Positions 13,745 through 32,700 of a stretch of DNA of 37,808 nt are shown here, piece by piece. Made by a program: the position numbers and the translations under genes. Location of the stretch: positions 1 through 37,808 of the forward strand of contig JAAHGY010000008.1 of NCBI GenBank assembly GCA_010672345.1. Reading direction: 5' to 3'. This DNA comes from Cyanothece sp. SIO2G6. Its GTDB lineage: Bacteria > Cyanobacteriota > Cyanobacteriia > CAKZMO01. Positions within the stretch are counted from its first letter, which is position 1; each line of letters opens with the position of its first letter. The notes below the pieces were generated by a model. It was given only the letters and a program-made list of their open reading frames with translations, was not told the origin of the DNA and made no database searches.

Positions 13745-15700
13745 ATGGCTGATCGTTCTCACTCCCGCATCCGCACCAAGCACCCCTCGTCCTTCCATAA
13801 TTTGCCATTGAATCGGTTGCCAGAGCGATCGTTTGGGCTTCAGGCGAAACCCGAAACCAGTGAGACCAAGGTTCAAAGACAGAGCAACACGGACTCCGCC
13901 CAGACCAGCCAATTCACTGCCCGTAACGTCAATATTTTGGCGAGTCTTTTGGCTCAGGGCCAAACACCTGCGGTTCAGGCTAAATCCCAAACCCCTGAGG
14001 TCAAACCCCAATCTCCACTCTATCAACCTAGGTCTTTCGGTCATGACTTTACCACCACGCCTTTCCTCCAACCCAAGCTGACGGTCGGGGCGGTGGATGA
14101 TCCGTATGAACAGGAAGCCGATCGCGTGGCGGCAGAAGTGGTTCAGCGCATCAATCAACCCCAATCCAACAAGTCTGGGTCGCAACAGCAGCGGGGGACA
14201 ACCAATACAGTGCAACGGCAAGACGTACCCGAAGAAGATGAAGAATTGCAGATGCAGCCTGTCTCAACTCTTCAGCAACAGAATATACCCGAAGAAGATG
14301 AAGAATTGCAGATGCAGCCGATGGAGTCGGTGCAACGGCAAGACATGCCCGCAGAAGAAGATGAAGAATTGCAGATGTCTCCTGTTTCCTCTCTGCAACG
14401 AAAGGAGGCGCTTGGAGACGAGGATGAGCTACAGATGAAACCTGTGGTGAAACTCCAGCGGCAGGAGATGGCGGAAGAGGATGAAGAATTGCAGATGCAG
14501 CCTATCTCAACTCTTCAACGTCAGGAGATGGCGGAAGATACGAATGAGTTACAGATGCAACCCCAAATCGAGCGTGTGGGTGCAGCAGGGGGAGCGGTGT
14601 CGGATGAATTTGAGCAGGAATTAAATACGGCCCGTGGTGGTGGGCAGGCGTTAGCACCAGAGTTGCAGGCTCAAATGGGGCAAGCAATGGGGGCGGATTT
14701 TAGTGGAGTGCGAGTGCATACCGATGGGCGATCGGATGCGCTAAACCAATCCGTCGGAGCCAGAGCCTTTACAACCGGGCAGGATGTATTTTTTAAGCGA
14801 GGGGAGTATCAACCGGGAAACCGAGGGGGTCAGGAGTTGCTTGCCCATGAGTTGACCCATGTGGTGCAGCAGAGTGGTGATACGGCAAAGCCGCATTCCC
14901 CTGTTCAAACCAACCGTGAAATGCCAATCCAGCGGAAAGCCGTTGAAGGGATTTCGGAATTTCAAACATCCGATGGGATTATCTTTTTCGATTTAGGGAA
15001 TGGTTTGTTCGGCAGCGATCGGCCCATTACTGCCCGCGATGTAAGCGAGTTGGTAAACGTCATACACGAGGCTCCAGGTAGAACAAATATTCAGATATTG
15101 ACAGGAACTCACGGTGATTATAACGGGAACCTAACTGGTGAACCAGTATTTTATGAACAAGATCTAAAGCATGAAGGACACAAGCATAAAGAAGGGGGGT
15201 GGGTTAATGTTCTGGATGTCAAAAAACGCAGTAAAGAACGCATAGAGGGATGGATGAAGCCCGGTTCTAATCGTGCTGTCATTTTGGCGTGGTGTTACAG
15301 CCAAGAATCTGTTAAAAACTGGGCTTTTGTGAATGCGAGGTGGGGACCAAAACAACCGTGGGCTTGGTCTAACGATTTAGGGGTTTCACGAGAGTGGGCC
15401 ATGTCTGTCATCCAAAAAGAAATGAATGAAAAGTTAGAGGAGAAAAGATCAAGTGATGGTTATGAGAAACGACGGAAGCAATACGAAAGTTATTCAGATG
15501 AGCAATTGATAGAAGGTATTAAAAAACGTGAGCCTTCACACTTTTACGCATTAGTTAAGTATGAAATGTATCTACAAAGAACAAATCAGCTAAAATACCC
15601 GCTACCCTATCCCCTCCCAGAAGTCTTACAAAGCGAAAACAATGGAGAGGCATACATGCAAAAGTGGGTTAAGGGGCAAGGGGGATATTTGACGAACTAA
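13745..15700 (+). CDS. DUF4157 domain protein (HExxH) with acidic repeats and an unassigned C-terminal domain
   Basis: LQPKLTVGAVDDPYEQEADRVAAEVV and GADFSGVRVHTDGRSDALNQSVGARAFTTGQDVFF...LLAHELTHVVQQ are DUF4157 hallmarks; the roughly 250-aa C-terminal part is unrecognised. Confidence 0.85.
   Translation: MADRSHSRIRTKHPSSFHNLPLNRLPERSFGLQAKPETSETKVQRQSNTDSAQTSQFTARNVNILASLLAQGQTPAVQAKSQTPEVKPQSPLYQPRSFGHDFTTTPFLQPKLTVGAVDDPYEQEADRVAAEVVQRINQPQSNKSGSQQQRGTTNTVQRQDVPEEDEELQMQPVSTLQQQNIPEEDEELQMQPMESVQRQDMPAEEDEELQMSPVSSLQRKEALGDEDELQMKPVVKLQRQEMAEEDEELQMQPISTLQRQEMAEDTNELQMQPQIERVGAAGGAVSDEFEQELNTARGGGQALAPELQAQMGQAMGADFSGVRVHTDGRSDALNQSVGARAFTTGQDVFFKRGEYQPGNRGGQELLAHELTHVVQQSGDTAKPHSPVQTNREMPIQRKAVEGISEFQTSDGIIFFDLGNGLFGSDRPITARDVSELVNVIHEAPGRTNIQILTGTHGDYNGNLTGEPVFYEQDLKHEGHKHKEGGWVNVLDVKKRSKERIEGWMKPGSNRAVILAWCYSQESVKNWAFVNARWGPKQPWAWSNDLGVSREWAMSVIQKEMNEKLEEKRSSDGYEKRRKQYESYSDEQLIEGIKKREPSHFYALVKYEMYLQRTNQLKYPLPYPLPEVLQSENNGEAYMQKWVKGQGGYLTN
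14209..14570. repeat. six ~60-bp in-frame tandem repeats
   Basis: units ..QRQDVPEEDEELQMQPVSTLQ.. begin near 14212, 14275, 14332, 14395, 14455 and 14515. Confidence 0.85.
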
Positions 15701-15717
15701 CCTGACAGCTCCTTGTA

Positions 15718-15766
15718 GGATGCATTAGCGTGGAGCGCAATGCACCGTTTTAGCGATCGCTTTTTC
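15718..15766 (+). terminator. candidate intrinsic terminator after the DUF4157 gene
   Basis: imperfect hairpin GGaTGCATTaGCG tggag CGCAATGCACC followed by GTTTT..GCTTTTTCC; lies between convergent genes; same repeat type as 26711-26742. Confidence 0.35.
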
Positions 15767-15825
15767 CTGATACCACCCGGCAAAACTCCTCCAAGAACAG
15801 TGTCCTTTTGAAATATATTTGCAGT

Positions 15826-16899
15826 TCACTTGCAGCACGAAATGTCGGTTACAGTCTTACCCAGATCATGGCTCTCCCAAGGATCGCCCATTCCTGCCAG
15901 CACCCGTCGGGGACCAGAAAAAGGCTGCCGTCCGTGGGTTGCTAACATATTGTCCAACAGCAACACGTCCCCCGCTTGCCAAGAAAACAAGATCGCTTCT
16001 GCGGTAAACGCTTGGTGAACCATTTCTAGCACATCAGGGGGAATGTCTGCCCCATTGCCATAGTAGGTGTTGCGGGGCACCCGATCAGCGGCAACACTCG
16101 CAAGCAAATTGGCTCGAACCGCAGGGTCCAATGTATTGATATTGAAGAGATGGGCCTGATTAAACCAAACAGCCTCTCTGGTGTGGGGATGGTGGGCGAT
16201 CGCCTGACACACTTGCCGCGTTTGTAACTGGTCACCGTCATGCCAGGTAAACTCAATCTGAGCTTGCTGACAGTAAGCTTCTACCTCAGATCGGTCCTCT
16301 GTTTGGAACACTTCCTGCCAGGGTAAATCCAGGCCACCGCCATAGTTACGGACGTACAATACCCCCTGTTGTTGAAATCGCGATCGCACGGCTGGATCAA
16401 TCCGCTCCAGAATACGGCGACTATCCGCGATCGGGGTTGCGCCTCCCTCAGCGGCAGGTTGCACACAATAGAAAGCAATTCTCAAGGGCCACTGACACGC
16501 ATAAGCCATCTCGTTGTGGAGAGGAATGGCACGATTGGCCGGATATTCCGTGGAGGTGTAGACGGAACCTTGCACTTGGGTACGAGGTGTGGAGCGGTAG
16601 GTATAGGGCATGGGTGGGTGGGCGATCGCCTGGATAAACTCACCAAAACCCTCGACCCCCGCCACCTGAAACCCACGAAACAGCACGCCGCCATGGTGGT
16701 GGAGCCACTGAGTAATCGTAGTCGGGTGGTGGGATATCCAATCCGTCAAACTTAATTCCGCTTGGGTCGGTTGCACCAGGAGGGGCAGGGCTGAATCGGG
16801 TTGCAGAGGGGTGGTCTGAACCAGAGTTTCGGTATTGAGGCTGACGCGCCGCCGTTGGCGCTTACCGGGAAAAGCAGTGGGTGATGTGGGTGATGGCAT
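15826..16899 (-). CDS. TauD/TfdA-family Fe(II)/2-oxoglutarate dioxygenase (SyrP-like amino-acyl beta-hydroxylase)
   Basis: VLFRGF..PLHNEMAY (HxE)..GGATPIAD..LDNMLATHGRQPF (distal His plus Arg); paralogue of the domain fused to NRPS-B. Confidence 0.85.
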   Translation of the reverse strand: MPSPTSPTAFPGKRQRRRVSLNTETLVQTTPLQPDSALPLLVQPTQAELSLTDWISHHPTTITQWLHHHGGVLFRGFQVAGVEGFGEFIQAIAHPPMPYTYRSTPRTQVQGSVYTSTEYPANRAIPLHNEMAYACQWPLRIAFYCVQPAAEGGATPIADSRRILERIDPAVRSRFQQQGVLYVRNYGGGLDLPWQEVFQTEDRSEVEAYCQQAQIEFTWHDGDQLQTRQVCQAIAHHPHTREAVWFNQAHLFNINTLDPAVRANLLASVAADRVPRNTYYGNGADIPPDVLEMVHQAFTAEAILFSWQAGDVLLLDNMLATHGRQPFSGPRRVLAGMGDPWESHDLGKTVTDISCCK

Positions 16900-16902
16900 A
16901 AG

Positions 16903-19900
16903 TTAGGACTCCTCCTGGGAAGGCTGGGAACGAACAGTTTTGCGTCGGGTCATGCGGAGTTTTTGTAAGTGAGTTCGTGATAGGGTCTGAGCCTGCTGCT
17001 GCTGTCGCTGCCGATCCAGGCTGTTGAGATGAGCTTGCCAGTCCCCTACGGAAGCATCGGGGTGAGCCACAAGCCACTGGAGCAGCGCTTTCAGATAGTG
17101 GAGCCAGCGCTCGGTGGTGTCTGCGGTAAAACAGGTGCGATCGCTCATAATCTGCAACACAAATTCTTCCCTTGGCAGCACCCGCAGGGTCAGGGGATAG
17201 TTATTGTTGCGAGACGTTGCTTCCGACAGCATTGTCAGCTTCGTTTGAGTCGAGGCACCCACCGCGTCCACCCGGTAATTTTCAAACACAATCAGGCTTT
17301 CAAACAGAGGTATGCCAGCAGGTAGCTCACTCCACCGTTGAATCTGATTCAGGGGGCTATATTCATACTGGCGAGCCTCGCTACGCTGGGTTTGCAGGGC
17401 TTGCATCCAGGTCATAATGCCCATATCTGCGATCAGCTTGACCCGCACTGGCAAGGTGTTGATAAAGAGGCCCACCATTTTGTCCACACCCGCGAGGCTG
17501 GGAGGTCGTCCCGCTGTGGTTGCACCAAAGACAATGTCGGTCTGGCCGCTAATCTGACTGAGAAGAATAGCCCAGGTTGCCTGAACCAAGGTGTTGGGGG
17601 TAATCCGATGCTGTTGGGCCAGGGTCTGAATGGCCGTAGCGGTGGCAGAATCTAAGGTGAAACCTTGAATTTCGTGGTTGGGGAGAGCGCCTTGGGGTTT
17701 CTGATAACCCAGAGAAGTGGGGGTCTGGAAGCCCTCCAGCAGGGAAGTCCAAAAGGTCTCTGCCGTGGATAAATCTTGGGCCATTAACCAGGCAATGTAC
17801 TCTCGATAGGGACGGCGCTCCGATAAGGTGGGCTGTTGCCCCTGGGTCAAGTTTTCGTAGAGCGTGAAGATTTCCTGAATCACCATCGGCATCGACCAGC
17901 CATCTAAGAGGATGTGATGACAGCTCCAAATGATATCGTAGGTATCATCGGTGACTTGCACTAGGGTGGGACGCATCAGGGGGGCAATGTGAGGTTGGAA
18001 GCCCGTGCGCTGATCCTGCTCCAGCAGTGCAGCTAAGTTAGTTTTTTGTGCGGCGGGTGTTTGCGATCGCCAATCATGCACCTGCCAAGGGACAACGACC
18101 TGCTGTTGCACCACCTGTAATGGCTCAGGCAAATCTTGCCACACAAATGCTGTACGGAGGATGGGGTGGCGATCGCTAATCAGTTGCCAGGTTTTCTGGA
18201 GCGCGGCCACATCCAGTTCACCCTGAAGACGGCAACAAATTTGGGTAACATACATGCCATCATCGGGCGCGTAGAGTGCATGGAATAAAAATCCTTGCTG
18301 GATAGGGGTGAGGGGATAGCAGTCTTCAATTTGGGGATGACGTGCGACTAGACAATCGAGGGTCGCTTGATCCAGTTGTGCCAAGGGAAAATCGGAGGGA
18401 GTATAGCCACCTGCTGCGGGACTGAGGCAGTGAGCCATGAGCGATCGCAACGTCTCCAAAAAAAACTGAGCCAGAGTCTCAATAGTTGATGGCGAGTACA
18501 CAGACACCTGGTAAGTCCAGCATAACCGCAACTGGCCTGCAACAATATTGCTATCGATATAGAGGCTATAGGTTTGACTTTGCCTCAACTTTGTTGCTTG
18601 GATCACCCGAAGCTGTGGAGCTTCAGTTTCCATCTCCTTATCACCATTGAGATGCTCAGATAAGTGTTCAGAGTGGCTAAAGTAAATGGTCGGGAGTAGT
18701 TCAGACGCTGTTGAACTGTCTGCTTGTCTGGCAGCCTGTCGATGTTGTTCTTTAATCGTTTTAATCGCAGAAGCTGGCTGATCAATATCCGTTAGGTCAA
18801 ACGCAATCGGACAGAGTGTTTCAAACCATCCGATGGTGCGGGATACATCCATATCTTCAACCAGATGGTTACGTCCCTCCCTAGCAAGGTCAATCGCTAG
18901 CGTAGATTCCTGTGTGCAATGGGCATAGGTTTGTACTAAGGCAGTAAGCAATACTTCGCAGGTGTGGGTGCGGTAAGCGAGGGGCACGTGCTGAAGCAGG
19001 GTTTGGGTATTTTCCGTGTCTAGGCTGACGGTTAAGCTGGCGATCGCGGCGGTTTCTCCACCCGCAGAATCAAGCGACGGTTGTATTGATGGCTGGTCCT
19101 GCTCCAGAGGCTGATCCTGATACTCCTGGTGCTGGAGCCGTTGACACCACTGCTGCAATGAGTGGGTTTTCGCCGATAGTCGCAGGGTCTGGCCTTGTAA
19201 CTGTTGTTGTAACAAAGTTTGGATGTCGCCTGTAAGAATCTGCCAGGAAGTAGGGTCAATTACAAGCTGATGAGCAATGAGGAGCAGATGTTGTAAATCC
19301 TCTTGGGTGGTAGGCTCTAGCAGAATAGCTTGAAACAGCGGCCCAGTAGCCAAATCCAGATTGTTCTGGAAGTTGTTGATAACGGTGGCGATTACCCTTT
19401 CCCTATCAACCCCAGACAGCGTAACCTGACTCACCAACCCTGGAGGCAAATGATCCAAGGCTGGATCATTATGTTGCGTCCAGGTGGCATCCTGCTGTTG
19501 GAAACTCAACCGCAACCCATCATGGTGATTCAGCAAATGATGGATGATGACTTGCAGATTCTCCAGAGTCAAGGGCTGTCGTAACTCTAGCTCCAAGGTC
19601 TGATACCACTGGCGATAATCGGTGGAGGGTTGGTCGAAAAACCAGCGTTGGATTGGTGTCAGCGGAATTGGGCCTACCACCGTGCCTTGGTCAGCAGTCG
19701 TGGCCGTTTCCACCACAGTTGCCAAGGTTCTGATAGTTTGGTGCTGAAATAGCTGCTTGGGGGTAAGTTGCAGTCCAGCCTGGTTCGCTTGAGCAATAAT
19801 CTGCAAGCTGAGGATGGAATCTCCTCCCAACTCAAAAAAGTTATCGTCGATGCCAATGGTGGAAACCCCCAGCACCTGGGTCCAGATGGTGGCAAGCTGT

Positions 19901-22900
19901 TGTTCTAGGGGCGATCGCGCCGCAGTAAATGGAGCCGCCAAACCAGAGCGATCGGGATTGGGCACATCAAGCGATTGCAATTTGGCCCGGTCAATTTTGC
20001 CGTTAGCGTTGAGGGGCATTTGCTTTAGCCAAACAAATGTCGCTGGCACCATGTAGTCCGGTAGTTGTGCCTGTAATTCCTGGCGCAAGTCTTGGACCGA
20101 GCAAGGTGGCTCAACGTCAAGCTTAATGTTGGCACTTACCCCCCTTAATCCCCCCTTGGTAAGGGGGGAAACCTTCGGAACTCCCTCCCCTTGGGAAGGG
20201 GAGGGCTGGGGTGGGGTAGACGGCATCACTGGGGCCAGATCTGAGTTAATCCCATCAGAGTTAGTCTCGGAGACGGTTTCAGCCTCAGCCTCAACCTCAA
20301 TCGAGTGCTGTGGTGTCAAATAGGCAACCAGTCGATTTTGTCCCGATTGGTCCGTTTGCACCATCACCACCGCATCTTGTACTTGGACAAGATGACGTAG
20401 TTTGGCTTCAATCTCACCCAGTTCGATCCGAAAACCTCGGATTTTTACTTGGTGATCAATCCGTCCCAGATACTCAAACGTACCATCAGGCAAATAACGA
20501 GCTAAATCACCCGTTTTGTAAAGACGACCCGAACCAAACGGATTGGCGATAAATCGTTCTGCCGTTAGCTTTGGCCGGTTGAGATAGCCCCGTGCTAGCC
20601 CCACACCACCAATGTACAGTTCACCTGGAATACCGATCGGTACAGGCTGTAGGGAACGATCGAGAATCATGCTTTGGAGATCCGGTAGCGCCCTGCCAAT
20701 GGGACTACTGGGCTGGTCTAAATCCAGTTTACTGAGCGGACGATAGGTCACATGCACTGTCGTCTCGGTGATGCCATACATGTTCACTAGTTGAGGCTGT
20801 TGGTCCCCATGTCGCTCAAACCAGGGCCGCAAGCTTTCGACTGCCAGCGCCTCGCCGCCAAAGATGACATAACGCAATTTTAAGGTGTCAGCCGGATAGT
20901 CAGCATCCACTTGAATCAACTGACTAAAGGCCGATGGAGTCTGATTGAGAACGGTAACCTGCTGTTCAACCAAGAGGTCATAAAATTCCTGGGAAGAGCG
21001 GCTGACCCAATAAGGCACCACCACCAGCCGTCCCCCATAGAGCAAGGCACCCCATAGTTCCCATACCGAAAAATCAAATGCATAGGAGTGGAAAAACGTC
21101 CAACAATCCTGATGATTAAAGTTGTACAGAGAGGCCGTCGTGTCAAATAGACGCACAACATTCTGGTGGGGAATCATCACGCCTTTGGGAATGCCTGTTG
21201 AACCGGAGGTGTAGATAATGTAAGCCAGGTTGTCAGCCGTGACTTCCGTATCCAAATTCTCTGACGGTAGCTGAGTAAGGGTCGGCCAGATTTCATCCAA
21301 ACAAACGATTGGAGCATCCAGGTGCGGCAATTCTTCCAGCAGGGCTGCTTGGGTCAGGAGCAGGGAAATATGGGCATCCTCAACCATAAATTGGAGCCGT
21401 GAGGGAGGATAGGTGGGGTCCAAAGGAACGTAGGCTCCGCCTGCTTTCAGAATTCCGAGTAACCCCACGATCATGTCGAGGGAGCGTTCTACACAAATCC
21501 CGACCAGAACCTCTGGGCCAACTCCCAAAGCCTGGAGGTGACGTGCCAGTTGATTTGCCCGTTGATTCAGTTCAGCGTAGGTGAGGTGATGGTGCTCAAA
21601 GGTAACGGCGATCGCCTCCGGATACTGCTCAACTTGGGCTTCAAAGCGCTGGTGCAGACAAACTAGAGCAGATGCTTGACCGTCTGGTTGCGGCTCTTGG
21701 ATCTGTCGCCAATCTCTGAGTTGGGCTGATTCGCCTGGGGTGAGTAAGGGAAGCCTGTCGAGGCAGGTGTCGGGATTGGCGGCAATGCCCGTCAGCAAAA
21801 CCTGGAAATGACCCAGCAGCCGCTCAATGGTGGCACTGTCAAACAGATCGCTGCTGTACTCCAGCGTGCCCTGCAAACAACCTTCAGATTCAACCACGGT
21901 TAACGTGAGGTCAAACTTGGCAGTGTTCCTGGCTAACTCCAGAGGCTGTAGGGTTAGCCCCGGTAAGCTGAGACCAGTATTGGGAGCATTTTGCAACACC
22001 AGCATTACTTGAAACAAGGGTGTATGGCTTAGGTCCCGTGGCAGTTGTAGGGTTTCAACCAGCTTTTCAAAGGGCAAGTCCTGATGGCTATAGGCTCCCA
22101 GGGCCACCTCACGCACCTGATTGAGTAGTTGCCGAAAACTGGAATCTCCGTCTAGCTGGCTCCGCAAGGCTAGGGTATTCATAAACAAACCAAGCAGCCC
22201 TTCGAGCGCCGCATGATTCCGATTGGCGATGGGTGAACCGACGGTAATGTCGGTCTGGCCTGTATAGCGATACAGCAGGGTTTTCAGGGCAGCTAGGAGC
22301 GTCATGAATAGGGTCGCATCAGCCGCTTTGCTCAGACTTTTAAGGGCTTGGGTTAACTCTGTGGATAAGGAAAAATTCTGGTGGCTGCCACGAAAGCGTT
22401 GTACGGCTGATCGGGGGCGATCGCTCGGCAACTGCAACACTGGAGGAATAGTGGCAAATTGTTGCTGCCAATAGTGAATTTGTTTTTGTAAATACTCTCC
22501 CTGGAGTCGCTGCCGTTGCCAGAGGGTAAAGTCTGCATATTGGAGGGGTAGGGACGGTAGCGGGTTGGGCAATCCTTGGGTGAAGGCGTGATAAAGCGTG
22601 GCGATCTCCCGCACCAACACCCCGGTAGACCAGACATCTGAAATGATGTGGTGTAACGTTACTAGCAAGACAAACTCCTGGTCTGCCAACGTTAGCAACG
22701 TCACCCTCAGCAACGGACCCTGGCGGAGATCAAAGGGTTGATGCACCTCTTTTTGGGCCAGCCGCTCCACTTCGTCCCAGGGCTGTTCGTCCAGGGCAGA
22801 CAAATCAATCTGCGTTAATGTCGTCAGTCCTTGGGAATGAATAATCTGTTGAGAATGCCCCCCAAACTCAGCACCCACACTGCCATTGTGGGGATTACTT

Positions 22901-23220
22901 TCGGTGCTGCTGGTATCGGCAATGGTCGTCCGCAGAATTTCATGGCGCTGCACTAAGGTTTGCAACACCTGCTCCAGAGCAGTAGTATCCAGCTTCCCTT
23001 GCAGATGTAGCCCAAAGGGAATGTTGTACAGCGGACTATCGGGTTCAAATTGGTACAAAAACCAAAGACGTTGCTGCGAAAACGATAGCGGTACTACTGC
23101 GTCAGGAGAACGGCGAGGAATGGTAGGCACTGGTGCGGTTCTGCCTTTGAGACGCTGAGCCAGGAGTGCTTGCTTAGCCGCAGAAAGTTTGGATTTGCGC
23201 GTTGATGTTGGGTCTGCCAT
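16903..23220 (-). CDS. NRPS-D: C-A(Thr)-T-E(degenerate)-C
   Basis: 2105 aa; motifs [99 protein letters not shown]. Confidence 0.95.
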   Translation of the reverse strand: MADPTSTRKSKLSAAKQALLAQRLKGRTAPVPTIPRRSPDAVVPLSFSQQRLWFLYQFEPDSPLYNIPFGLHLQGKLDTTALEQVLQTLVQRHEILRTTIADTSSTESNPHNGSVGAEFGGHSQQIIHSQGLTTLTQIDLSALDEQPWDEVERLAQKEVHQPFDLRQGPLLRVTLLTLADQEFVLLVTLHHIISDVWSTGVLVREIATLYHAFTQGLPNPLPSLPLQYADFTLWQRQRLQGEYLQKQIHYWQQQFATIPPVLQLPSDRPRSAVQRFRGSHQNFSLSTELTQALKSLSKAADATLFMTLLAALKTLLYRYTGQTDITVGSPIANRNHAALEGLLGLFMNTLALRSQLDGDSSFRQLLNQVREVALGAYSHQDLPFEKLVETLQLPRDLSHTPLFQVMLVLQNAPNTGLSLPGLTLQPLELARNTAKFDLTLTVVESEGCLQGTLEYSSDLFDSATIERLLGHFQVLLTGIAANPDTCLDRLPLLTPGESAQLRDWRQIQEPQPDGQASALVCLHQRFEAQVEQYPEAIAVTFEHHHLTYAELNQRANQLARHLQALGVGPEVLVGICVERSLDMIVGLLGILKAGGAYVPLDPTYPPSRLQFMVEDAHISLLLTQAALLEELPHLDAPIVCLDEIWPTLTQLPSENLDTEVTADNLAYIIYTSGSTGIPKGVMIPHQNVVRLFDTTASLYNFNHQDCWTFFHSYAFDFSVWELWGALLYGGRLVVVPYWVSRSSQEFYDLLVEQQVTVLNQTPSAFSQLIQVDADYPADTLKLRYVIFGGEALAVESLRPWFERHGDQQPQLVNMYGITETTVHVTYRPLSKLDLDQPSSPIGRALPDLQSMILDRSLQPVPIGIPGELYIGGVGLARGYLNRPKLTAERFIANPFGSGRLYKTGDLARYLPDGTFEYLGRIDHQVKIRGFRIELGEIEAKLRHLVQVQDAVVMVQTDQSGQNRLVAYLTPQHSIEVEAEAETVSETNSDGINSDLAPVMPSTPPQPSPSQGEGVPKVSPLTKGGLRGVSANIKLDVEPPCSVQDLRQELQAQLPDYMVPATFVWLKQMPLNANGKIDRAKLQSLDVPNPDRSGLAAPFTAARSPLEQQLATIWTQVLGVSTIGIDDNFFELGGDSILSLQIIAQANQAGLQLTPKQLFQHQTIRTLATVVETATTADQGTVVGPIPLTPIQRWFFDQPSTDYRQWYQTLELELRQPLTLENLQVIIHHLLNHHDGLRLSFQQQDATWTQHNDPALDHLPPGLVSQVTLSGVDRERVIATVINNFQNNLDLATGPLFQAILLEPTTQEDLQHLLLIAHQLVIDPTSWQILTGDIQTLLQQQLQGQTLRLSAKTHSLQQWCQRLQHQEYQDQPLEQDQPSIQPSLDSAGGETAAIASLTVSLDTENTQTLLQHVPLAYRTHTCEVLLTALVQTYAHCTQESTLAIDLAREGRNHLVEDMDVSRTIGWFETLCPIAFDLTDIDQPASAIKTIKEQHRQAARQADSSTASELLPTIYFSHSEHLSEHLNGDKEMETEAPQLRVIQATKLRQSQTYSLYIDSNIVAGQLRLCWTYQVSVYSPSTIETLAQFFLETLRSLMAHCLSPAAGGYTPSDFPLAQLDQATLDCLVARHPQIEDCYPLTPIQQGFLFHALYAPDDGMYVTQICCRLQGELDVAALQKTWQLISDRHPILRTAFVWQDLPEPLQVVQQQVVVPWQVHDWRSQTPAAQKTNLAALLEQDQRTGFQPHIAPLMRPTLVQVTDDTYDIIWSCHHILLDGWSMPMVIQEIFTLYENLTQGQQPTLSERRPYREYIAWLMAQDLSTAETFWTSLLEGFQTPTSLGYQKPQGALPNHEIQGFTLDSATATAIQTLAQQHRITPNTLVQATWAILLSQISGQTDIVFGATTAGRPPSLAGVDKMVGLFINTLPVRVKLIADMGIMTWMQALQTQRSEARQYEYSPLNQIQRWSELPAGIPLFESLIVFENYRVDAVGASTQTKLTMLSEATSRNNNYPLTLRVLPREEFVLQIMSDRTCFTADTTERWLHYLKALLQWLVAHPDASVGDWQAHLNSLDRQRQQQQAQTLSRTHLQKLRMTRRKTVRSQPSQEES
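16996..18333 (-). other. NRPS-D terminal condensation domain (DCL-like)
   Basis: YPLTPIQQGFLFH, RHPILRTAF, CHHILLDGWS; followed only by a basic tail (RMTRRKTVRSQP) and the stop. Confidence 0.8.
18346..19668 (-). other. NRPS-D epimerization-like domain, core motifs degenerate
   Basis: E1 TPIQRWFF is present, but E2 reads AHQLVIDPTSW (19243-19275), EGHGRE reads EGRNH, and the GxGYG and FNYLGQ motifs are absent. Confidence 0.75.
19696..19908 (-). other. NRPS-D thiolation domain (GGDSI type)
   Basis: [14 protein letters not shown]; Ppant Ser codon at 19816-19818. Confidence 0.85.
19966..21663 (-). other. NRPS-D adenylation domain, predicted Thr
   Basis: hand-extracted 10-residue code DFWNIGMVHK, which equals the Thr code as remembered from the Stachelhaus table. 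Confidence 0.8.
20135..20217. repeat. double-hairpin palindromic repeat element, copy B, inside the NRPS-D coding sequence
   Basis: CCCCCCTTGGTAAGGGGGG and CCCTCCCCTTGGGAAGGGGAGGG hairpins; reverse complement of copy A; translated in frame as TPPQPSPSQGEGVPKVSPLTKGGLRGVS. Confidence 0.8.
21751..23103 (-). other. NRPS-D condensation domain (LCL-like), HHIISDVWS
   Basis: C1 LSFSQQRLWFL; C3 at 22627-22653 with Val in place of the usual Gly. Confidence 0.8.
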
Positions 23221-23460: not shown

Positions 23461-26400
23461 CTACTCCTGCATCAATGCTTGAACTTCTTCATCTGTCATG
23501 GCCTCAATTTCTGCTAGGAGAGCAATTTCAACCACTTCAGCAATCTCTGCCACTGTATGGGCATCAAACAATTGGTGCAGAGGCAGTTCAACTTGAAAAA
23601 CTTCCCGTAAGCGCGATAATACCTGGGTGGCTAGCAGCGAATGGCCGCCTAAATCAAAGAAGTTATCGTTGACTCCAACGGTTTCCAGCCCTAGAACATC
23701 GGTCCAAATGGCGGCGATCGCTTCTTCGGTGGGATTGCGGGGAGCAACATACTCTTTGGAGAGATCCGGTCTAATCCGCTCCGGGGCTGGTAGAGCCTGT
23801 CGATCGACCTTGCCGTTGGGGGTCAGGGGCAGCGCAGACAAGGTAACAAATAGACTGGGAATCATGTAGTTGGGCAGTCGCTGTCGCAGAAACAAACGGA
23901 ACTCACCAGAATCTAGGGTTGTCTCGGTCGTTTTTTCAGGGTGAGGAACCGCAGGGTGAGGAACCACATAGGCCACCAGCACAGGGTTATTGGGGTCGTC
24001 CTCCCTAACAATGGTGCTTACCGCCTGGACATCGGGATGCTGGGCCAGTTGAGCCTCAATTTCCCCCAACTCGATGCGGAACCCGTGGAGTTTGACTTGT
24101 AAATCCACCCGCCGCAAAAACTCCAGATTCCCGTCGGGGTGACGACGAGCCAAGTCACCCGTGCGGTACATTCGCCCCCCAGATTGGTGGCTAAACGGGT
24201 CTGGTAGGAACCGCGCCGCTGTCAATCCTGGACGGTGCAGATAACCACGGGTCACTCCGTCACCGCCAATATAAACTTCCCCTGGAATGCCGATAGGAAC
24301 GGGTTGGAGGTCAGAGTCCAACAAGTAAACTTGGCTATTGGTCAGCGCTTGACCAATGGGGACGGTGGCGGCTGTTTGCTGGGCGGTGGTGCGAAAGGCA
24401 TGGGTCAGGGCACCAACAGTGGTTTCGGTGGGTCCGTAGTGGTTAAAGCTACGACAGTGGGGAGCCAATTGTTGGATCTGATCCATCAGCGACCAAGAGC
24501 AGGCTTCTCCGCCCAATACTAGCCGTTGACGGGGCAACATCTGCTCAGGCTGTGGAGTTTGGAGCAAGGCTCTCAGGTGGGATGGCACAATCTTGAGGCA
24601 GTCGATCGGGTGCTGTTGAGTATAGTCCACCAGCGCCTGGGCATCCCCAACCCGTTCAGCGGCAATCACATGCAGGGTTCCCCCCTGGCACAGACAGGGA
24701 AAGATCATGGTGTGGCCCAAATCAGCAGCCAAGGTTGACACGGTGGCGTAATGTCCCGCAGCAGGGAGGTCTAAGCGGTCAATGGCGCTGTCAACGTAGG
24801 AGAGCAACTGACGATGTTCAACGGCGACCCCTTTGGGCTGGCCCGTGGAGCCAGAGGTGTAGATAATGTAGGCCAGATTCGCCAGCATCACTGCACTGGT
24901 AGGATTGGCGCTGCTGTGTTGGGCGATGATGGGGCGATCGCCATCCAAACAAACCACCTGAGTCGTCACCGCCGTTTCCCGCAGTAATGACTGTCGGGTG
25001 ACTAAAATCTTGGCTTGGGCATCTTCCAGACGATAGCTGACTCCGTTGCTAGGCAGGGCAATGTCAATGGGCAGATAGGTGGCACCTGTTTTGAGGATGG
25101 CTAGCAGCGCAATTAATAAATCAAGCGATCGCTCCAAATAAATAGCCACAGGTACCTCTGGCCCAGCCCCTAATTGCTGGAGATGGTGAGCTAGTTGGTT
25201 AGCTTGGTGATTGAGTTCTTGGTAGGTGAGTTGTTGCGTTTCGTAAATCAAGGCAACCGCATTTGGAGTCCGTTCAACCTGCTGTTCAATGCGATGATGA
25301 ATGCAGGTGTTAGACACAATGTGGGCAGGGGTGGCGTTGGCCGTTGGTGTTAAAGCATCCGCTGCATCGGTTAACTTAAAGCTGCTGATGGAGGCTGTGG
25401 GCTGCTGACTCATGTGAGTGAGTAGAGACTGGAGTTGGTTACTGAGGGCGGCGATCGCCCCTGCACTGATCACGGTCTCGTTGTAGTGAAATTCCAACAC
25501 TAGTTGGTTATCCTGCTGGATTGCGGTTAACTTCAACTCTGGAGCTTGAGCATCGCTCCACGTTTGCTCAAGCCTGAACTCGACTCCGGCCACACTAACG
25601 GATGCAGGTTGGTGGATAAACTCAAAACTGATGGGCCATGGGACTGGGCGATCGCTCGGATAATAATCTTGCCATTCATTTAGTTCTTGCCAATTCTGTT
25701 CAACCTGACGGAGTAAAGCGGTAAAGGCGATCGCCCCAGAGATCTGACTGTGCAACGGTAACGTGTGGGTAAATGGCCCACAGACATCCACTAAGTCCTC
25801 ATCCTGACGACTTTCACAGGTGACTCCAAGCGTAATGTCAGATTGCTCTGTCTGTCGCCACAACACCACCAGCCAACTCGTTAGCAAAACTGTTTCCACA
25901 GCCGTATCCATTGCCAACAGAGTTTCAGCAAGGGGAGTCGCCAATTCCATTCGGTGGACGTTGGACCTAAATTGGTCCGGTTCAGCATCTCGATACCGTA
26001 AGGGTGGTAGCAAAGGCCCACGAGATGGTGATAGCTGTTGTTGCCAAAATGTTTGGGCAGCTTGACTCTCCTCATCAGCCTCTGTGAGCAACTGCTCTTG
26101 CCAGGTGGCAAACTGGACATACTGGACGGGTTCTTCTGTTAGCGATCGCCCCCCGTAACATTGGCTGATCTGGGCTAGCAGAATCTCACAGGTCTTGGTG
26201 TCAGCACAGAGTGCAGGTAGGGTCAGCAGTAGGATGTGCTTATTTTCACTCAGCTTAAACAGTGTTGCTTCAACCCAACTTGGTCCCGCTGGCTGAACCG
26301 ATTGCCGCTGCTTCGCTTGAAAGTTAGCCAAAGTGACAGCTTGTTCTGTGGCAGTGGCGGTCGCCAGATCAATCATCTGCCAATTAATGCTCCCCTGAGA

Positions 26401-26649
26401 TTGAATGGTTTGGAGGGGCAGCGTCAATCCTGGTGTTGACTGAAATGTTGTTCGCAGAATTTCATGGTGATTGACAACGGTTTGCAGCGCAGTTTGCAGC
26501 AGCGGCAAATCCAGGTTGCCTTGCAGCATTATGCGACACTGAGTTGTCAGAACCTGACCCAAGGCAGACTGTCGCCACCAAATCTGGCGTTGTTGAGAGG
26601 AGAGCTTAAAACCTGTAATCGTTGAGATCGTTGGGGATGACATAGGCAA
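23461..26649 (-). CDS. NRPS-C: His-less C-like (interface-type) domain-A(Asp)-T
   Basis: 1062 aa; LSSQQRQIWW, NHHEILRTTF, LPALCADTKT in place of HHxxxDG, LAYIIYTSGSTGQPKGV, YRTGDLARRHPDG, NGKVDR, FFDLGGHSLLA. Confidence 0.95.
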   Translation of the reverse strand: MPMSSPTISTITGFKLSSQQRQIWWRQSALGQVLTTQCRIMLQGNLDLPLLQTALQTVVNHHEILRTTFQSTPGLTLPLQTIQSQGSINWQMIDLATATATEQAVTLANFQAKQRQSVQPAGPSWVEATLFKLSENKHILLLTLPALCADTKTCEILLAQISQCYGGRSLTEEPVQYVQFATWQEQLLTEADEESQAAQTFWQQQLSPSRGPLLPPLRYRDAEPDQFRSNVHRMELATPLAETLLAMDTAVETVLLTSWLVVLWRQTEQSDITLGVTCESRQDEDLVDVCGPFTHTLPLHSQISGAIAFTALLRQVEQNWQELNEWQDYYPSDRPVPWPISFEFIHQPASVSVAGVEFRLEQTWSDAQAPELKLTAIQQDNQLVLEFHYNETVISAGAIAALSNQLQSLLTHMSQQPTASISSFKLTDAADALTPTANATPAHIVSNTCIHHRIEQQVERTPNAVALIYETQQLTYQELNHQANQLAHHLQQLGAGPEVPVAIYLERSLDLLIALLAILKTGATYLPIDIALPSNGVSYRLEDAQAKILVTRQSLLRETAVTTQVVCLDGDRPIIAQHSSANPTSAVMLANLAYIIYTSGSTGQPKGVAVEHRQLLSYVDSAIDRLDLPAAGHYATVSTLAADLGHTMIFPCLCQGGTLHVIAAERVGDAQALVDYTQQHPIDCLKIVPSHLRALLQTPQPEQMLPRQRLVLGGEACSWSLMDQIQQLAPHCRSFNHYGPTETTVGALTHAFRTTAQQTAATVPIGQALTNSQVYLLDSDLQPVPIGIPGEVYIGGDGVTRGYLHRPGLTAARFLPDPFSHQSGGRMYRTGDLARRHPDGNLEFLRRVDLQVKLHGFRIELGEIEAQLAQHPDVQAVSTIVREDDPNNPVLVAYVVPHPAVPHPEKTTETTLDSGEFRLFLRQRLPNYMIPSLFVTLSALPLTPNGKVDRQALPAPERIRPDLSKEYVAPRNPTEEAIAAIWTDVLGLETVGVNDNFFDLGGHSLLATQVLSRLREVFQVELPLHQLFDAHTVAEIAEVVEIALLAEIEAMTDEEVQALMQE
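23515..23727 (-). other. NRPS-C thiolation domain
   Basis: FFDLGGHSLLATQV; Ser codon at 23638-23640; acidic C-terminal tail EIEAMTDEEVQALMQE. Confidence 0.85.
23740..25302 (-). other. NRPS-C adenylation domain, predicted Asp
   Basis: hand-extracted code DLTKVGHVGK versus the remembered Asp code DLTKVGHIGK (9 of 10, Ile to Val). Confidence 0.75.
25345..26622 (-). other. NRPS-C N-terminal C-fold domain lacking catalytic histidines
   Basis: codons 26197-26217 read P-A-L-C-A-D-T where HHxxxDG is expected; C1, C2, C4 and C5-like motifs are retained. Confidence 0.8.
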
Positions 26650-26767: not shown

Positions 26768-29700
26768 TTAAGTTGCGGCAGATGTGACTGAATATATCTG
26801 GCTCAATTTCGCCTGAGTCATCATTTCACCCATCGCCACTGCAATCATGCGAGACCCCGTATAGGCATGTCGTCCGTGAGCCATCAGCATGTTGTCAAGC
26901 ATGATTATGTCTCCTTGCTGCCAGTCGAAGACCTGTTCCGCTTCGGTGTAGGCGGCTTGCAACCCATTGAGTACCTCCGGCTCAATGGTAGACCCATCGC
27001 CGTAATACACCTGACGCGGCAGTCGGTCTTCCCCAAAGAGCGAGAGAAGAGACTGCTGGGTAGGTTGATCCAGATAGGACAAATGGTGCAGTTGGAGTTG
27101 GTTAAAAACGACCCATTCCCCAGTCAGGGGATGACGGACCAAAGCCGGACGGATTTGACGGGTTTGTAAACCATCATCGGCCAGCCATTCCCACTCAACT
27201 CCGGCAGCTTGGCAACGTTGTTCCACTACAGCACGATCATCGGTGTGAAAAAAGTCTTGCCATGCCACATCCAGCCCTTTGATGTAATTGCGAACGTACA
27301 TGAGTTGCTTCTGGTGGAGGCGATCGCGCATCTCCGGGCTTAACAACTGATAGGCCTTGCGACAATCAACAATTGGGGTCGCACCGCCCTGTTTTGCAGG
27401 TTGCAAACAGCAGAACCAAATCTTCATCGGCCACTGTTGTAAATGGGAACTCTCGTTGTGAAACAGGATGGCCTTATCTTCGGGATAGGGGGTAGAACCG
27501 TAAACCTTATCACTGACTCCCGTGCGAGGCAGATCACCGTACTCTCCAAACAGATCGGGACAGATTGCTACCGCTGCCTGTTCAAAATCCTTAGCGGTTT
27601 CAATTGAGAATCCCCGAAAAAGCAATGCCCCATGTTTGAGCAACTTATCGTTCAACGCCGCTCGTTCGCCCTTGGCCCACAGGACTAAATTCACATCATG
27701 GTTGTTGGGCTGGACCGTCATCACCCCACAGGGAAGGGGCTGGATTGTCACCAGATCAGTGGTGGCCTGCTGCACTGCCTGTGGAGTCACTCGTTTGAAC
27801 TTCTTCCGTCGTTTTGCACCTTTTGCGCCTTTTGATCCAGCTTGCGGTTGTGTCACCATCGAGGTAAGAGTCTCCAAATCAATATCAGGTTGAGCCACCA
27901 CTTGACTCAGCAGGGTTTCAAATTGTTGGGCTAAGCGGCTGATGGTGTCCTGGGTAAAGCGATCGCCGCTATAGTTCCAGGAAACTGTAAGACCTGTAGG
28001 CGTTTCACTGACAAACAGCGCCAAATCAAACCGGGCTGAGTGGGTATTGAGCGTAACCGGAGTCAGGGTTAGATCTAGCAATTCAAAAGAATTGAAAGGA
28101 GCATTTTGCATCACAAACAACACCTGGACAAATGGAGTGACCCCACTACGGCGAGCATCAGGTTGTAGCGCTTGCACCAGTTGGGAAAAAGGTAGATCTT
28201 GGTGGGCATAACTCTCTAACGTTACCTCCCTGACCCGCTGGAGCAAGTCTTGGAAAGTGGGATTGCCTGATAAATCCGTGCGTAATACGAGCAAATTGAT
28301 AAAGAAGCCAATCAGTCCTTCAATTTCAGTGCGATTGCGATTGGCAATATCGGTCCCCACCATCATGTCAGGCTGACCACTGTGGACATACAAGAGGGCT
28401 TTGAACCCTGCTAATAGCGTCATAAACAAGGTAGTACCGTGGGATTGACTAAGCTGATGCAGCTTACTGGCGAGAGCTGCTGATAGATGGAATGTGGACA
28501 TATCTCCCTGGAAGCTGGGCGTTTCTGGAGGGGGATAGTCCGCCGGAAGCTTTAACACAGGCAACTGCCCGCCTAATTTTTGTCGCCAGTAAGCAAGCTG
28601 TTGGTCGAGCACCTCATCCGTCAGCCATTGTCGCTGCCACACAGCAAAGTCGGCATACTGAATCGGCAAGGATTCTAGCAAGGGGAGTGACGCGGTGGTG
28701 TAGGCGGTATAGAGAGTACTCAACTCATGCACCAGCACCCCTGTAGACCAAATATCCGAAATGATGTGATGGATAGTCCATAGCAAGATGTACTCTTGGT
28801 CCTGTAGCTGTAAAACACTAGCGCGGAATAATGGGCCTTGGGTGATGTCAAAGACTTCCTGGTCGGCAGCAGTTGCCAACCGCTGAACCTCTTCAGGTTG
28901 CTGGGTTGGAGATAGCGATCGCAAATCCACTACAGGTAACGTTGTTGTCAAAGTTGGAGCAATCTGCTGGATGGGTTGACCTTGGTGCAGGATAAATGTG
29001 GTTCTGAGAATTTCGTGACGATCGACAATGGTTTGCAAACTGTGATGGAGCGGATCAAGGTGGAGGTTTCCGGTTAAGCGCACCGCCACGGTTTGGTTAT
29101 ACACCGCACTGTCAGGGTAGAGTTGTTCCAAAAACCACAGTCGTTCCTGGGCAAAGGATAAGGGGAGGGGCTGATGGCGATCGCATCGAGTAATCATATC
29201 CTGTTGCGTCTGACGCTGTTCCCCGACCCAGGTAGCTAATTCAGCTACGGTAGGAGTTTCAAACAGTTGTCGGACCGAGATATTCACATGGAAAATCTGT
29301 CGCATCCGAGCAATCACCTGGGTGGCGAGGAGGGAATGACCGCCCAACTCAAAGAAGTTATCGTAAATCCCCACTTGCTCCACAGGTGAGGTCAGGATTT
29401 TGGCAAACAAGGCTGCGATCAGTTTTTGCGGTTCGGTTTGGGGCGCAACAAACTCGGTTGTGCGCTCATAATTAGGTTCAGGTAAGGCTTTGCGATCGAC
29501 TTTGCCATTAGGGGTCAGGGGCAACGCTGGCAAACACATGACCACATTGGGAACCATGTAATCGGGCAGATGTTGTCTGAGGTGTTGCTTGAGCTGGAGT
29601 TTGAGCTGCTGAGTATCGGTATCGCTGACCACGTAGGCGACCAATCGCTCCTGGTCTGCCTTGTCCTTGTGCACCACCACCGTACACTGCCGCACCTGTT

Positions 29701-32700
29701 CATGGCGATCGAGCACCGCTTCAATTTCCCCTAGCTCGATCCGAAACCCCCGCAGTTTGACTTGATAATCGGCCCGACCCAAATAATCAATGGTGCCATC
29801 GGGCAAGTACCGGGCTAAGTCACCTGTGCGATAGAGGCGATCGCCCGGTATTTGTCCAAAGGGATTGGGCACAAACCGTTCAGCGGTCAGACTTGGACGT
29901 TTGTAGTATCCCCGCGCCAATCGAACACCTCCAAGGTACAGATCTCCCGGCACACCCACAGGTACAGGATTCAACAATTCATCCAAAATATAGACTTGGG
30001 TATTGGTCAACGGTCGCCCCACGGTAATCGGGGTGCTGTCTGTAATTTCTTGCTGAGTGGCCCACACTGTCACCTCGGTAGGACCGTAAAAATTCCTCAG
30101 CGTGGCGCATCGTTCCCGCAAATCCCTGGCTAAATCCGGGGTCAGGGCTTCACCCCCACAAATGATCTGGAGTTGGGTACTGCCGGACCAGTTGGCATCC
30201 AGTAGCATTCGCCAGGTGGCAGGGGTCGCCTGCATCAGCGTCACCCCACGGGTATTGATCTGTGCCGCTAAACGTAAGCCATCCTGGGCTACCTCCCTGG
30301 ATACGAGCACCAATTGCGCCCCCACCACCAGAGGCAACCATAGCTCCAAGACCGACATGTCGAAGGAAAAAGATGCTGCCGACAGGATGGTGTCTGCCGA
30401 GGTGATGCCTAAATCCTGGCGTTGAGAGTGGATTAAATCCACAACGGCATTGTGGGTAATTTGCACCCCTTTGGGCCGACCTGTGGAACCGGATGTGTAG
30501 ATCATGTAGGCCAAGTTATCCGCCTGGGTTGGAGAAGTGGGAGCAGTCACAACCGCTGGAATGGGCTGATCCAAACAAACTGTCTTGCCTCGGTAATTGG
30601 GGAGCAAATCCTGGAGCCAGGATTGACTAATCAAGACTTCCACATTGGCATCATCCACCATAAAGGCCAGACGCGGCGGCGGATAGTTGGGGTCTAGGGG
30701 AATGTAAGCGCTCCCAGCTTTGAGAATCCCCAGCAGACCCACCATCATGTCCACAGACCGTTCTACGCAGATCCCCACTAAGCTGTCAGGGCCAATCCCC
30801 ATGCTTTGCAGGTAGTGAGCCAGACAATCTGCTTTGGTATTCAGTTCCTGATACGTGAGCTGATCGGCTTCAAAGGCCACCGCCACCGCCTCTGGGGTTT
30901 GTTGAGCTTGACGGTCGATCAGGGTGTGGAGACAGAGATCTGGATGAGGTGCTGCTGTGGCGTTCCACTCTGCAAACTGCCGTTGTTCTGCTGTCGTGAG
31001 CAGGGGCATTGTGGCGATCGCCTGCGAATCATCAGTCACCATTGCCGTGAGCAGCACCTCAAAATGGTGGGCCATGCGACCAATGGTTTCTGGCTCAAAC
31101 AGATCGGTGCTATGTTCCCACTCACAGATCAACCCCTGATCACTTTCTTCTACAGAAAGGAGCAGATCACATTTGGCTGTAACGGATGCGGCGGGCAGGG
31201 GAGTCACGGTCATATTGGGCAGTTCCAGGGGCGATCGCGGCATGTTTTGCAACATAAACATCACCTGGAACAGGGGTGAATGGGCCAAACTGCGCTGGGG
31301 TTGTAGTGCCTCAACCACTTGCTCAAAGGGAACGTCTTTGTGGCTATAAGCCTCCAGGGTCATTTGTTTAACTCGGTGGAGAAAATCCTTGACCGAGGCT
31401 GTTTCATTGATAGGCAACCGTAACACCAAGGTATTCACAAACAAGCCAATCAAGGATTCCAACTCAGGCTGCTGCCGATTGGCAATACTCGTTCCCACAA
31501 CGATGTCCCGCTGCTTGCTGTAGCGATAAAGCAGCAGTTGGAATGCTGCCAGTAACGTCATGAATAGCGTCACCTGATGTTTTCGAGCCAGCACTTTCAC
31601 CTGTTCGCCCAGTGCCTTGGGCAACATGACCACCTGGGTCTGCCCACGAAAGCTCTGCACCGCTGGTCGAGGATGATCCGTGGGCAATTCTAGTAGCGTC
31701 GGCGCACCCGCTAGTTGCTGCCGCCAATAGTCAAGCTGGGTTGCCAGCACCTCTCCCTGCAACCACTGGCGCTGCCACTGGGCATAGTCGGCATATTGAA
31801 TTGGCAGTTCCGATAGGGGTTGATTCTCGCTGTCGGTGCGGTAAAGCGCGATCAGTTCCCGGATAAAGATGCTGATAGACCAGCCATCGCTAATGATGTG
31901 ATGCATGGTCACCACCAGTATGGCAACATCCGCTTCGAGATGAACCAACGCTAACCGCAATAATGGTCCGGTGGTCAGATCAAACGGCTGCTTGACCTCA
32001 TGGTTGAGCCAATCTGAGACAGAGACATTTAGCCTAGAGACATTTAGCCCAGAGACACTCAGGTCAGAGACACTTAGCCCAGAGACATTCAGCCCAGAGA
32101 CACTTAGGTCAAAGGCATGAAGCGATCGCACAGGAATGTCCATTGTCGGATGAATGCGCTGGATGGCAGTACCATTCACCACGGGAAATGTCGTCCGCAA
32201 AGTCTCATGGCGACAAACAATGGCATTGACAGCTTGCTGCAACTTGGCAACGTCAAAGGTACCTTCTACCCGCACCACACCCGGCATGTTGTAAGTCCCT
32301 GATACCCCTTCCAACTGGGCCAGGAACCAGAGTCGTTCTTGAGCATAGGATAGGGGAATTGGCGCATCATCCCGTGGTGTTGGGGTAATCGGAGGCATGT
32401 CCAGCCCTCCAGCAGTTTCTGAATCTAGGGCCGCATCGATACCAGCCACGGTTGGCGTTTCAAATAGCACTTTGAGCGAAATCTCGGTTTCTAGGGCTTG
32501 ACGCAGGGACGTGATCAGCCGCATTGCCAGCAGGGAATGTCCCCCCAAATCAAAGAAATTATCATGGATACCAAGGGTCTCAGCAGGTACAGAGAGCACG
32601 TCAGCAAAGAGACTGGCAATCAGGGTTTGTCGCTCGGTTTGAGGGGCAACAAATGTCTCGGTGGGACTGAAGGCGGGAGCAGGTAGGGCTTTGCGATCCA

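Follow-up and report, generated by a model that had tools for sequence, protein, structure and literature searches.

The contig JAAHGY010000008.1 of Cyanothece sp. SIO2G6, which at its full length of 37,808 nucleotides is referred to here as the window, carries on its minus strand a series of genes for nonribosomal peptide synthetases (NRPSs) that ends in a free gene for a dioxygenase of the TauD family. The genes follow one another in the order NRPS-B, NRPS-C, NRPS-D and free TauD. The subject of this analysis is the junction between the last two, at which the C-terminal condensation (C) domain of NRPS-D and the start of the hydroxylase gene are separated by a single stop codon and one further codon; NRPS-B likewise ends in a C domain and a TauD domain, there joined in one polypeptide. 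The features that bear on the junction are listed below, with adenylation (A), thiolation (T) and epimerisation (E) domains abbreviated and with reference to open reading frames (ORFs).

26768..35539, minus strand: NRPS-B gene, 2923 aa, with a C-terminal C domain (HHIISDI) fused to a TauD domain at about 26834-27694 (Pfam)
23461..26649, minus strand: NRPS-C gene, 1062 aa, with an N-terminal C-like domain of the interface type without the HH motif, then A and T (Pfam and motif)
16903..23220, minus strand: NRPS-D gene, 2105 aa, with C, A, T, a degenerate E-like domain and a terminal C domain (ORF list and Pfam)
16906..18345, minus strand: terminal C domain of NRPS-D with an intact HHILLDG (Pfam and motif)
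16906..16968, minus strand: C-terminal tail of NRPS-D with the basic motif LQKLRMTRRKTV (tail consensus and profile score)
16909..16916, minus strand: Shine-Dalgarno-like AGGAGGAG in the last codons of NRPS-D, ending 9 bases 5' of the TauD ATG (sequence, with a predicted function)
16903..16905, minus strand: stop codon TAA of NRPS-D (sequence and ORF list)
16900..16902, minus strand: spacer CTT, the 3 bases between the NRPS-D stop and the TauD start (sequence)
16897..16899, minus strand: start codon ATG of the stand-alone TauD (sequence and ORF list)
16819..16872, minus strand: N-terminal motif of the hydroxylase FPGKRQRRRVSLNTETLV, residues 10-27 (consensus of 63 sequences and alignment with the NRPS-B linker)
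15826..16899, minus strand: gene for an Fe(II)/2-oxoglutarate dioxygenase of the TauD family, 357 aa, a CcsK-like putative aspartyl beta-hydroxylase (Pfam and homology)

Read from the window sequence, the minus strand at the junction is ...CAG GAG GAG TCC TAA CTT ATG CCA TCA.... The stop of NRPS-D, the CTT and the ATG of TauD lie in one common frame, one stop and one codon apart, and this ATG is the sole start codon in the open frame 3' of the stop. Both the coordinates and the shared frame had been given in an earlier note on this DNA, and they are correct according to the window sequence and the ORF list. The same note had aligned the N-terminus of the stand-alone TauD with the linker that precedes the TauD domain of NRPS-B, and this alignment is real: in a BLASTP comparison the stand-alone protein matches from residue 12 (GKRQRRR...) to NRPS-B from GAKRRKK, with 41% identity over 333 residues. 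The aligned stretch of NRPS-B begins about 40 residues N-terminal of its Pfam TauD domain (residues 2616-2902).

The stand-alone protein matches the Pfam family PF02668 over residues 45-336 with 155.5 bits (cut-off 27). Its nearest solved relative is 1Y0Z (E = 1.9e-39), in which an HHE is aligned with the HNE of TauD. Residues H128, E130 and H322 are invariant among 63 stand-alone sequences, and we take these to be the His-x-Asp/Glu ... His triad that binds the metal. A scan of NCBIfam returned no specific family for the TauD protein or for the C domains. Over 95% of the query, the protein shares 58.5% identity with the TauD coding sequence that lies between CcsJ and CcsL in AP017310.1, and is thus a putative CcsK-like aspartyl beta-hydroxylase. 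Of a CcsK-like context the window contains the C domain upstream of TauD and no NRPS downstream of it; an orthologue of CcsL (49% identity) is encoded on contig C450 of the same genome.

The synthetase side of the junction is formed by NRPS-D, in which Pfam matches three Condensation-family stretches together with AMP-binding and PP-binding, and the order C-A-T, E-like, C is a reading of these matches. Compared with the C domains of NRPS-B, its terminal C domain shows 41% identity to the first one, which follows an E domain, and 27% to the one fused to TauD. An alignment of 63 upstream C domains shows no variation at H144, H145 and D149. Interface (I) domains are defined as C-like domains without the HHxxxDG motif (PMC13638107). 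The loss of the catalytic His motif is not seen in the terminal C-like domain of NRPS-D, where HHILLDG is intact, and to judge from its motif the domain is a canonical C domain and not an I domain. The loss is seen at the start of NRPS-C, which has a partial Condensation match (Pfam profile positions 7-329 of 456), and in the NRPS on contig C450, where LPALCAD and LSALIAD, respectively, stand at the HHxxxDG position. In the related loci L011, L013, L016 and L058, the NRPS downstream of TauD likewise starts with a C-like domain from which both His residues are missing.

A stop codon at the homologous place, 5-8 residues past the RRK motif of the tail and followed by an ATG, is found in L008, L009, L010, L011, L013 and AP017310.1, which are independent assemblies. 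The last of these is a complete plasmid, and its CcsJ stop is at the position homologous to the stop of NRPS-D. The closest relative, L008, comes from a related genus and has a TauD of 89% and a C domain of 81-84% identity; it reads TCC TAA GCCC ATG, with a stop and an ATG identical to those of the window and a spacer that differs, being 4 bases long and putting the two genes out of frame. The N-terminus of the TauD of the window, MPSPTSPTAFPGK..., corresponds to MPLPTSPTAFPGK... of this orthologue. The other close relatives are arranged as follows.

L009, TauD identity 73%: TAA and 4 bases (AGCA), out of frame
L010, TauD identity 73%: TAG and 17 bases, out of frame
L011, TauD identity 66%: TAA and 99 bases, in frame with an extra in-frame stop
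L013, TauD identity 58%: TGA and 5 bases, out of frame

The wider family was surveyed in the best 80 of 588 related loci, which were confirmed in the genome collection and classified by script. In 72 of the 80 the junction is split, such that the ORF with the C domain ends with a stop just 5' of a separate TauD ORF, one (L077) is fused, and in seven a C domain was not detected or the locus runs off the end of its contig. The 72 include L012, which is more likely a fused gene with a frameshift. The frame difference between the two genes is 0, 1 and 2 in 15, 21 and 36 of the split loci, respectively, compared to an expectation of about 24 in frame at a prior of 1 in 3; L035 and L064 are the only two that combine a shared frame with one stop. 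A hand count from the spacer list gave 37 loci with spacers between -25 and +25 bases, of which four have a spacer that is a multiple of three. In-frame junctions are thus not enriched across the 72 related split loci. The shared frame in the window is best explained by chance, and the 1-base difference in spacer length from the nearest orthologues accounts for it; the frame itself would have no function. The earlier note had tied such an explanation to orthologues that are consistently out of frame or well separated and that lack homology to the linker. The first part agrees with the nearest orthologues, which are out of frame with spacers of 4, 4, 17 and 5 bases or have a further stop in a 99-base spacer, but not with CcsJ and CcsK of cyanochelin B, which are in frame with one stop. 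The second part does not apply, as the homology is present; it is due to an N-terminal motif which is family-wide and also occurs in stand-alone enzymes, and therefore says nothing about a recent fission.

At the junction the spacer is 3 bases long, the AGGAGGAG site lies inside the upstream gene and has counterparts in L008 (AGGAGGA) and L013 (AGGAGGG), and neither a promoter-like nor a terminator-like site was found on the minus strand in 15500-17400. This suggests that NRPS-D and TauD are co-transcribed and translationally coupled. Folding of 120 nt of RNA around the stop gave -24.8 kcal/mol (z = -0.18 relative to shuffled sequences) and hence no unusual structure. Taken together, the stop between NRPS-D and TauD is very probably genuine and old, an ordinary boundary between two genes of a cyanochelin-type siderophore cluster, and the shared frame a coincidence. 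The proposal of the earlier note that C, stop and TauD mirror the C-TauD fusion of NRPS-B stands as far as the architecture is concerned, and fused and split relatives both exist; none of the three explanations that it attached to the junction, namely a recent gene fission, a sequencing or assembly error hiding a second fusion, and a junction tuned for readthrough, holds here.

The closest characterised counterpart is the cyanochelin B system, in which CcsK is a self-standing beta-hydroxylase ahead of the Asp module CcsL (PMC12628792). In AP017310.1 (plasmid 2 of Leptolyngbya sp. NIES-3755) CcsJ (BAU16063.1), TauD and CcsL (BAU16061.1) are separate genes. As in the window, a C domain forms the end of the NRPS, the tail reads ...LQRLKLTKRRKQH, a TauD gene of its own that begins ...FTRQHRRKLV lies past the stop, and an NRPS-fused hydroxylase (CcsFGH) precedes the first Asp module (CcsI), which can be compared to NRPS-B and NRPS-C. 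The two systems differ in that the spacer to the annotated ATG is 21 bases in cyanochelin B and 3 bases in the window, and in that CcsL directly follows CcsK, whereas the CcsL orthologue of the window's genome is on another contig. At the identity given above the hydroxylase of cyanochelin B is a relative of that of the window, and the clusters are not of the same type in detail. The junction of the plasmid (L090, 2773-2799) reads ...KRRKQH, stop, PLMKFPT, MNQIP..., with an alternative ATG 6 bases past the stop.

A fused counterpart is known from cyanochelin C, where ccsJK carries a C domain and TauD (bioRxiv 10.64898/2026.07.24.740629). Compared by description, ccsJK resembles the window in having a module followed by a C domain and a TauD that act with ccsL, and differs from it in that the C domain and TauD are in one ORF instead of being split. 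The fused and the split state of this junction are therefore both already published, in cyanochelin C and cyanochelin B, respectively. A more distant parallel is provided by the myxoglucamide proteins MxgA (ACP-C-Ox, with ACP for acyl carrier protein) and MxgB (I-A-PCP, with PCP for peptidyl carrier protein), for which completion of hydroxylation is coupled to condensation in vitro and the I domain is dispensable (PMC13638107). These share with the window a canonical HHxxxDG C domain, a 2-oxoglutarate dioxygenase and a next protein that opens with a motif-less, C-like interface domain; unlike the window, they use Glu and not Asp as the substrate, come from a myxobacterium, have a fused dioxygenase and make a product that is no siderophore. 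The Asp beta-hydroxylases of siderophores have been divided into the classes TBH_Asp, IBH_Asp, CyanoBH_Asp1 and CyanoBH_Asp2, of which the latter two are the named cyanobacterial classes (Reitz et al.; eLife 2026, PMC12971057). Potashchelin is made with the stand-alone PtcA and the fused PtcB (PMC7100376), and both in the potashchelin/Reitz classes and in the window stand-alone and NRPS-fused hydroxylases of the TauD type coexist in one cluster and belong to different clades.

In the proposed reading, the CcsJ-like NRPS-D ends in a catalytically intact C domain with a short basic tail, after which TAA, three bases and ATG lead into the CcsK-like hydroxylase with its own predicted AGGAGG site. 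By analogy with characterised systems the free hydroxylase would work in trans with the C domain of NRPS-D and would act on Asp attached to the carrier domain of the I-A-T module that comes next. The partner module of the stand-alone enzyme is predicted to be the CcsL-like one that is encoded on another contig, and the covalent C-TauD of NRPS-B may do the equivalent job for the adjoining I-A-T module, NRPS-C. Complex prediction for the terminal C domain (481 aa) with TauD (357 aa) scored 0.38, 0.01 and 0.00 in three runs and was counted neither for nor against the proposal.

Several points weigh against reading the junction as an ordinary boundary with a coincidental frame. The related loci are not independent of one another (there are eleven Microcoleus-type rows, for example), which makes the counts descriptive, with no test attached, and the start codons were picked by a rule in the script, which renders the spacer lengths of distant loci approximate. 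In cyanochelin B, CcsJ and CcsK share a frame as well, with a single TAA and a distance of 21 bases to the annotated ATG, and given this pair and a metagenomic contig which bridges the junction the in-frame state is not peculiar to this assembly. In the window TauD lacks the expected I-A-T module as a neighbour and could be a remnant at a broken cluster end. The coupling of the two genes, the activity of the enzyme and the identity of the partner module are predictions from sequence. Finally, a search of public runs for the window stretch listed two runs, each with just 5-6% of the sampled words.

The possibility that a rearrangement moved the Asp module away and left TauD and the terminal C domain stranded, and hence out of the pathway, is an unlikely one. 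It would fit with the gene that follows TauD, which is convergent and encodes an eCIS_core/Tox-HDC protein instead of an I-A-T NRPS, with the downstream NRPS that comes directly after TauD in the relatives L011, L012, L013, L016, L058 and AP017310.1, and with the E-like domain of NRPS-D, which is without catalytic motifs. Yet the ORFs of NRPS-D and TauD are both intact and the metal-binding residues of TauD are conserved. The CcsL orthologue, with the domains I-A-T-E, is present at full length on contig C450 (L088, 5989-10791; 49% identical to BAU16061.1), and the same contig carries an NRPS that terminates in a reductase. NRPS proteins that are encoded at separate loci can still function together, and the pathway in this genome appears to be encoded at two or more loci.

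A recent fission would imply that a C-TauD fusion of the NRPS-B or ccsJK kind was split by a point mutation to TAA, with the old linker left behind as the N-terminus of TauD. The in-frame junction with its single stop and one codon, the alignment of the N-terminus with the NRPS-B linker and the fused ccsJK of cyanochelin C (10.64898/2026.07.24.740629) are all compatible with such an event. So are the nearest fusions met in a search for longer relatives, P0008 and P0009, which have a TauD identity of 62-63% and the layout (A)-T, E-like, C, TauD. The history of the two states was followed in a FastTree of 180 TauD rows (63 split, 115 fused and two other), which is unrooted, has local supports only and was sampled unevenly, with split rows that came out of the genome scan and fused rows that came out of the search for longer proteins. 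In this tree the window forms a clade with L008, L009, L010, L011 and L013 (support of 98 for the five inner rows and of 85 at the fork where L013 joins), and all six are split, down to 58% identity. The sister of this clade is the fused pair P0008 and P0009, the joint clade of eight rows has a support of 98, and it is nested in a clade of 13 rows of which the remaining five are all split. The TauD of NRPS-B is in a separate clade of 78 rows that are all fused (support 95). The tree as a whole requires at least nine changes between split and fused, and the starred branches force 4 to 6 of them.

Fusion and fission thus recur in the hydroxylase family, and with all six members of its clade split, the split in the lineage of the window is, on the evidence of this tree, old; the direction of fusion or fission at this junction is inferred. 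A recent fission at the junction is accordingly very unlikely, as the split is common to the whole clade and to cyanochelin B and the fused copy in NRPS-B is no recent twin. The orthologues retain the stop with differing spacers and frames, the start codon and the AGGAGG site are common to the window and the 89% orthologue, and the C and TauD of NRPS-B are only 27% and 41% identical to those of the NRPS-D/TauD pair, meaning that neither the fused nor the free unit of the window is a recent copy of the other. A single point mutation would also be insufficient to account for a basic motif that is doubled in split pairs across several phyla and has two hits in just one of 115 fused linkers.

If the junction were tuned for readthrough, some ribosomes would pass the TAA and produce a certain amount of covalent C-TauD fusion beside the two separate proteins. 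A shared frame with one stop is seen in the window, the cyanochelin B cluster, L035 and L064, the base directly 3' of the stop is a C, and the naturally fused forms show that a fusion would be functional. Against this, the two genes do not share a frame in the 89% and 73% orthologues, and in-frame junctions are rare if anything in the survey, both overall (15/72) and at short spacers (4/37). No stable RNA structure is found at or after the stop (z = -0.18), leaving the junction with neither a frame conserved in the nearest orthologues nor a stimulatory structure in the 120-nt fold, as would be expected of programmed readthrough. TAA is generally the least leaky stop in bacteria, and a literature search on stop readthrough brought up no NRPS case among the papers listed. 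Readthrough at this site is highly improbable.

That C and TauD truly form one continuous fused gene, into which a fragmented metagenome assembly has brought the TAA by error, is scarcely credible: the source genome is indeed a metagenome-assembled genome of 1148 contigs of which the window is one entire contig, no public run was found to contain the stretch, the two listed having just 5-6% of the sampled words, and L012 looks like a fused gene broken by a frameshift (the coverage in its contig name is 2.4), but the homologous stop and ATG recur in the independent assemblies of L008, L009, L010, L011, L013 and the complete plasmid AP017310.1, NRPS-D has the tail motif typical of split forms, and the junction is spanned with no indel by a contig of another metagenome. 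The reads of the two listed runs gave just short contigs of relatives of about 90% identity, among them this one, which is 187 bases long, covers 16784-16970 with 18 differences and no gaps, and is informative on indels and not on the letters of the stop. In L012 itself (960-1030; TauD 65% identity) a C-TauD fusion of the P0008 type appears to be interrupted by a frameshift and has no start codon before the conserved motif; it is probably an assembly error or a pseudogene.

The basic motif occurs on both sides of the junction. At the N-terminus of the hydroxylases the consensus in 63 stand-alone enzymes is LGxxxRKxVxLSxExLVKT, in which R16 and L26 are conserved in at least 90%, and it is present in stand-alone enzymes of Cyanobacteria, Acidobacteriota, Chloroflexota and other phyla; a motif conserved across phyla cannot date a fission. 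The tails of the 63 upstream NRPSs have the consensus QKLKxxxRK. When the tails were scored with the profile of the N-terminal motif, which has 13 columns and was built from split enzymes, the tail of NRPS-D reached 7.7 bits, and 40 of the 63 tails reached at least 5 bits, compared to 21 of 1260 composition-preserving shuffles. Two motif hits were obtained in 28 of the 63 split pairs and in one of the 115 fused linkers, a difference that is indicative only, as the profile is insensitive on fused linkers (no hit in 89 of the 115). No description of a doubled motif was met in the available parts of the related hydroxylase and siderophore literature. It is conceivable, though doubtful, that the two copies (QKLKxxKRKxV in the tail and KLGxxRRKxVxLSxEELV at the N-terminus) are docking peptides that keep the free hydroxylase attached to the C domain, and/or a direct repeat around the stop and start that enables switching between fused and split states by deletion or duplication, with rare readthrough adding some fusion where the genes are in frame (the window, cyanochelin B, L035 and L064).

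Other features of NRPS-D and of its surroundings were noted. The E-like domain (18346-19710, minus strand, residues about 1171-1625) is 35% identical to the E domain of NRPS-A. E domains usually carry EGHGRE; here AREGRN stands at this position and HQ replaces HH (IAHQLVIDP), and with these catalytic motifs lost the domain may be an inactive epimerase, even though the preceding carrier domain shows GGDSI, a form typical of E-partnered carriers. The A domain has a Pfam gap (20116-20304, minus strand), in that the AMP-binding core extends to residue 880 and AMP-binding_C starts from residue 1041. The gene convergent on TauD (13745..15700, plus strand, 651 aa, eCIS_core and Tox-HDC) is unrelated to the NRPS cluster and marks its end in the contig.

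On contig C450 (5989-17778), where the remainder of the pathway seems to lie, the CcsL orthologue comes first; after it come a free C domain, a class-III aminotransferase, an NRPS that terminates in a thioester reductase, and a glycosyltransferase, and genes for ABC and RND/HlyD transporters lie upstream of it. Contig C301 (L089, 3497-9325, minus strand) encodes a second NRPS end with the domains C-A-T-thioesterase and then two tandem stand-alone TauD homologues that are 48% and 40% identical to that of the window; a gene for a large RTX-repeat protein adjoins them. Among the surveyed loci, the script had suggested that TauD is fused to the downstream NRPS in L036 and L045, which is an artefact, the ORF lists giving normal stops at 4008 and 3987. 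In these two Nostocales-type loci the C-domain ORF ahead of TauD is itself separate (L036 1389-2945 and L045 1394-2959, about 520 aa), and the unit can therefore be split on both sides.

For annotation, a real stop means that the two genes should be neither merged nor flagged as a pseudogene or frameshift. The C domain that adjoins the hydroxylase should be taken as the condensation domain at work in a split module, and the interface domain as the His-less start of the next NRPS. In the mining of genomes for beta-hydroxyaspartate siderophores it has to be considered that fused and split hydroxylases interconvert within one clade, and whether a hydroxylase is fused or free thus says little, taken alone, about its class or stereochemistry. 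The doubled basic motif, lastly, may serve as a small lead on how free hydroxylases find their synthetase.

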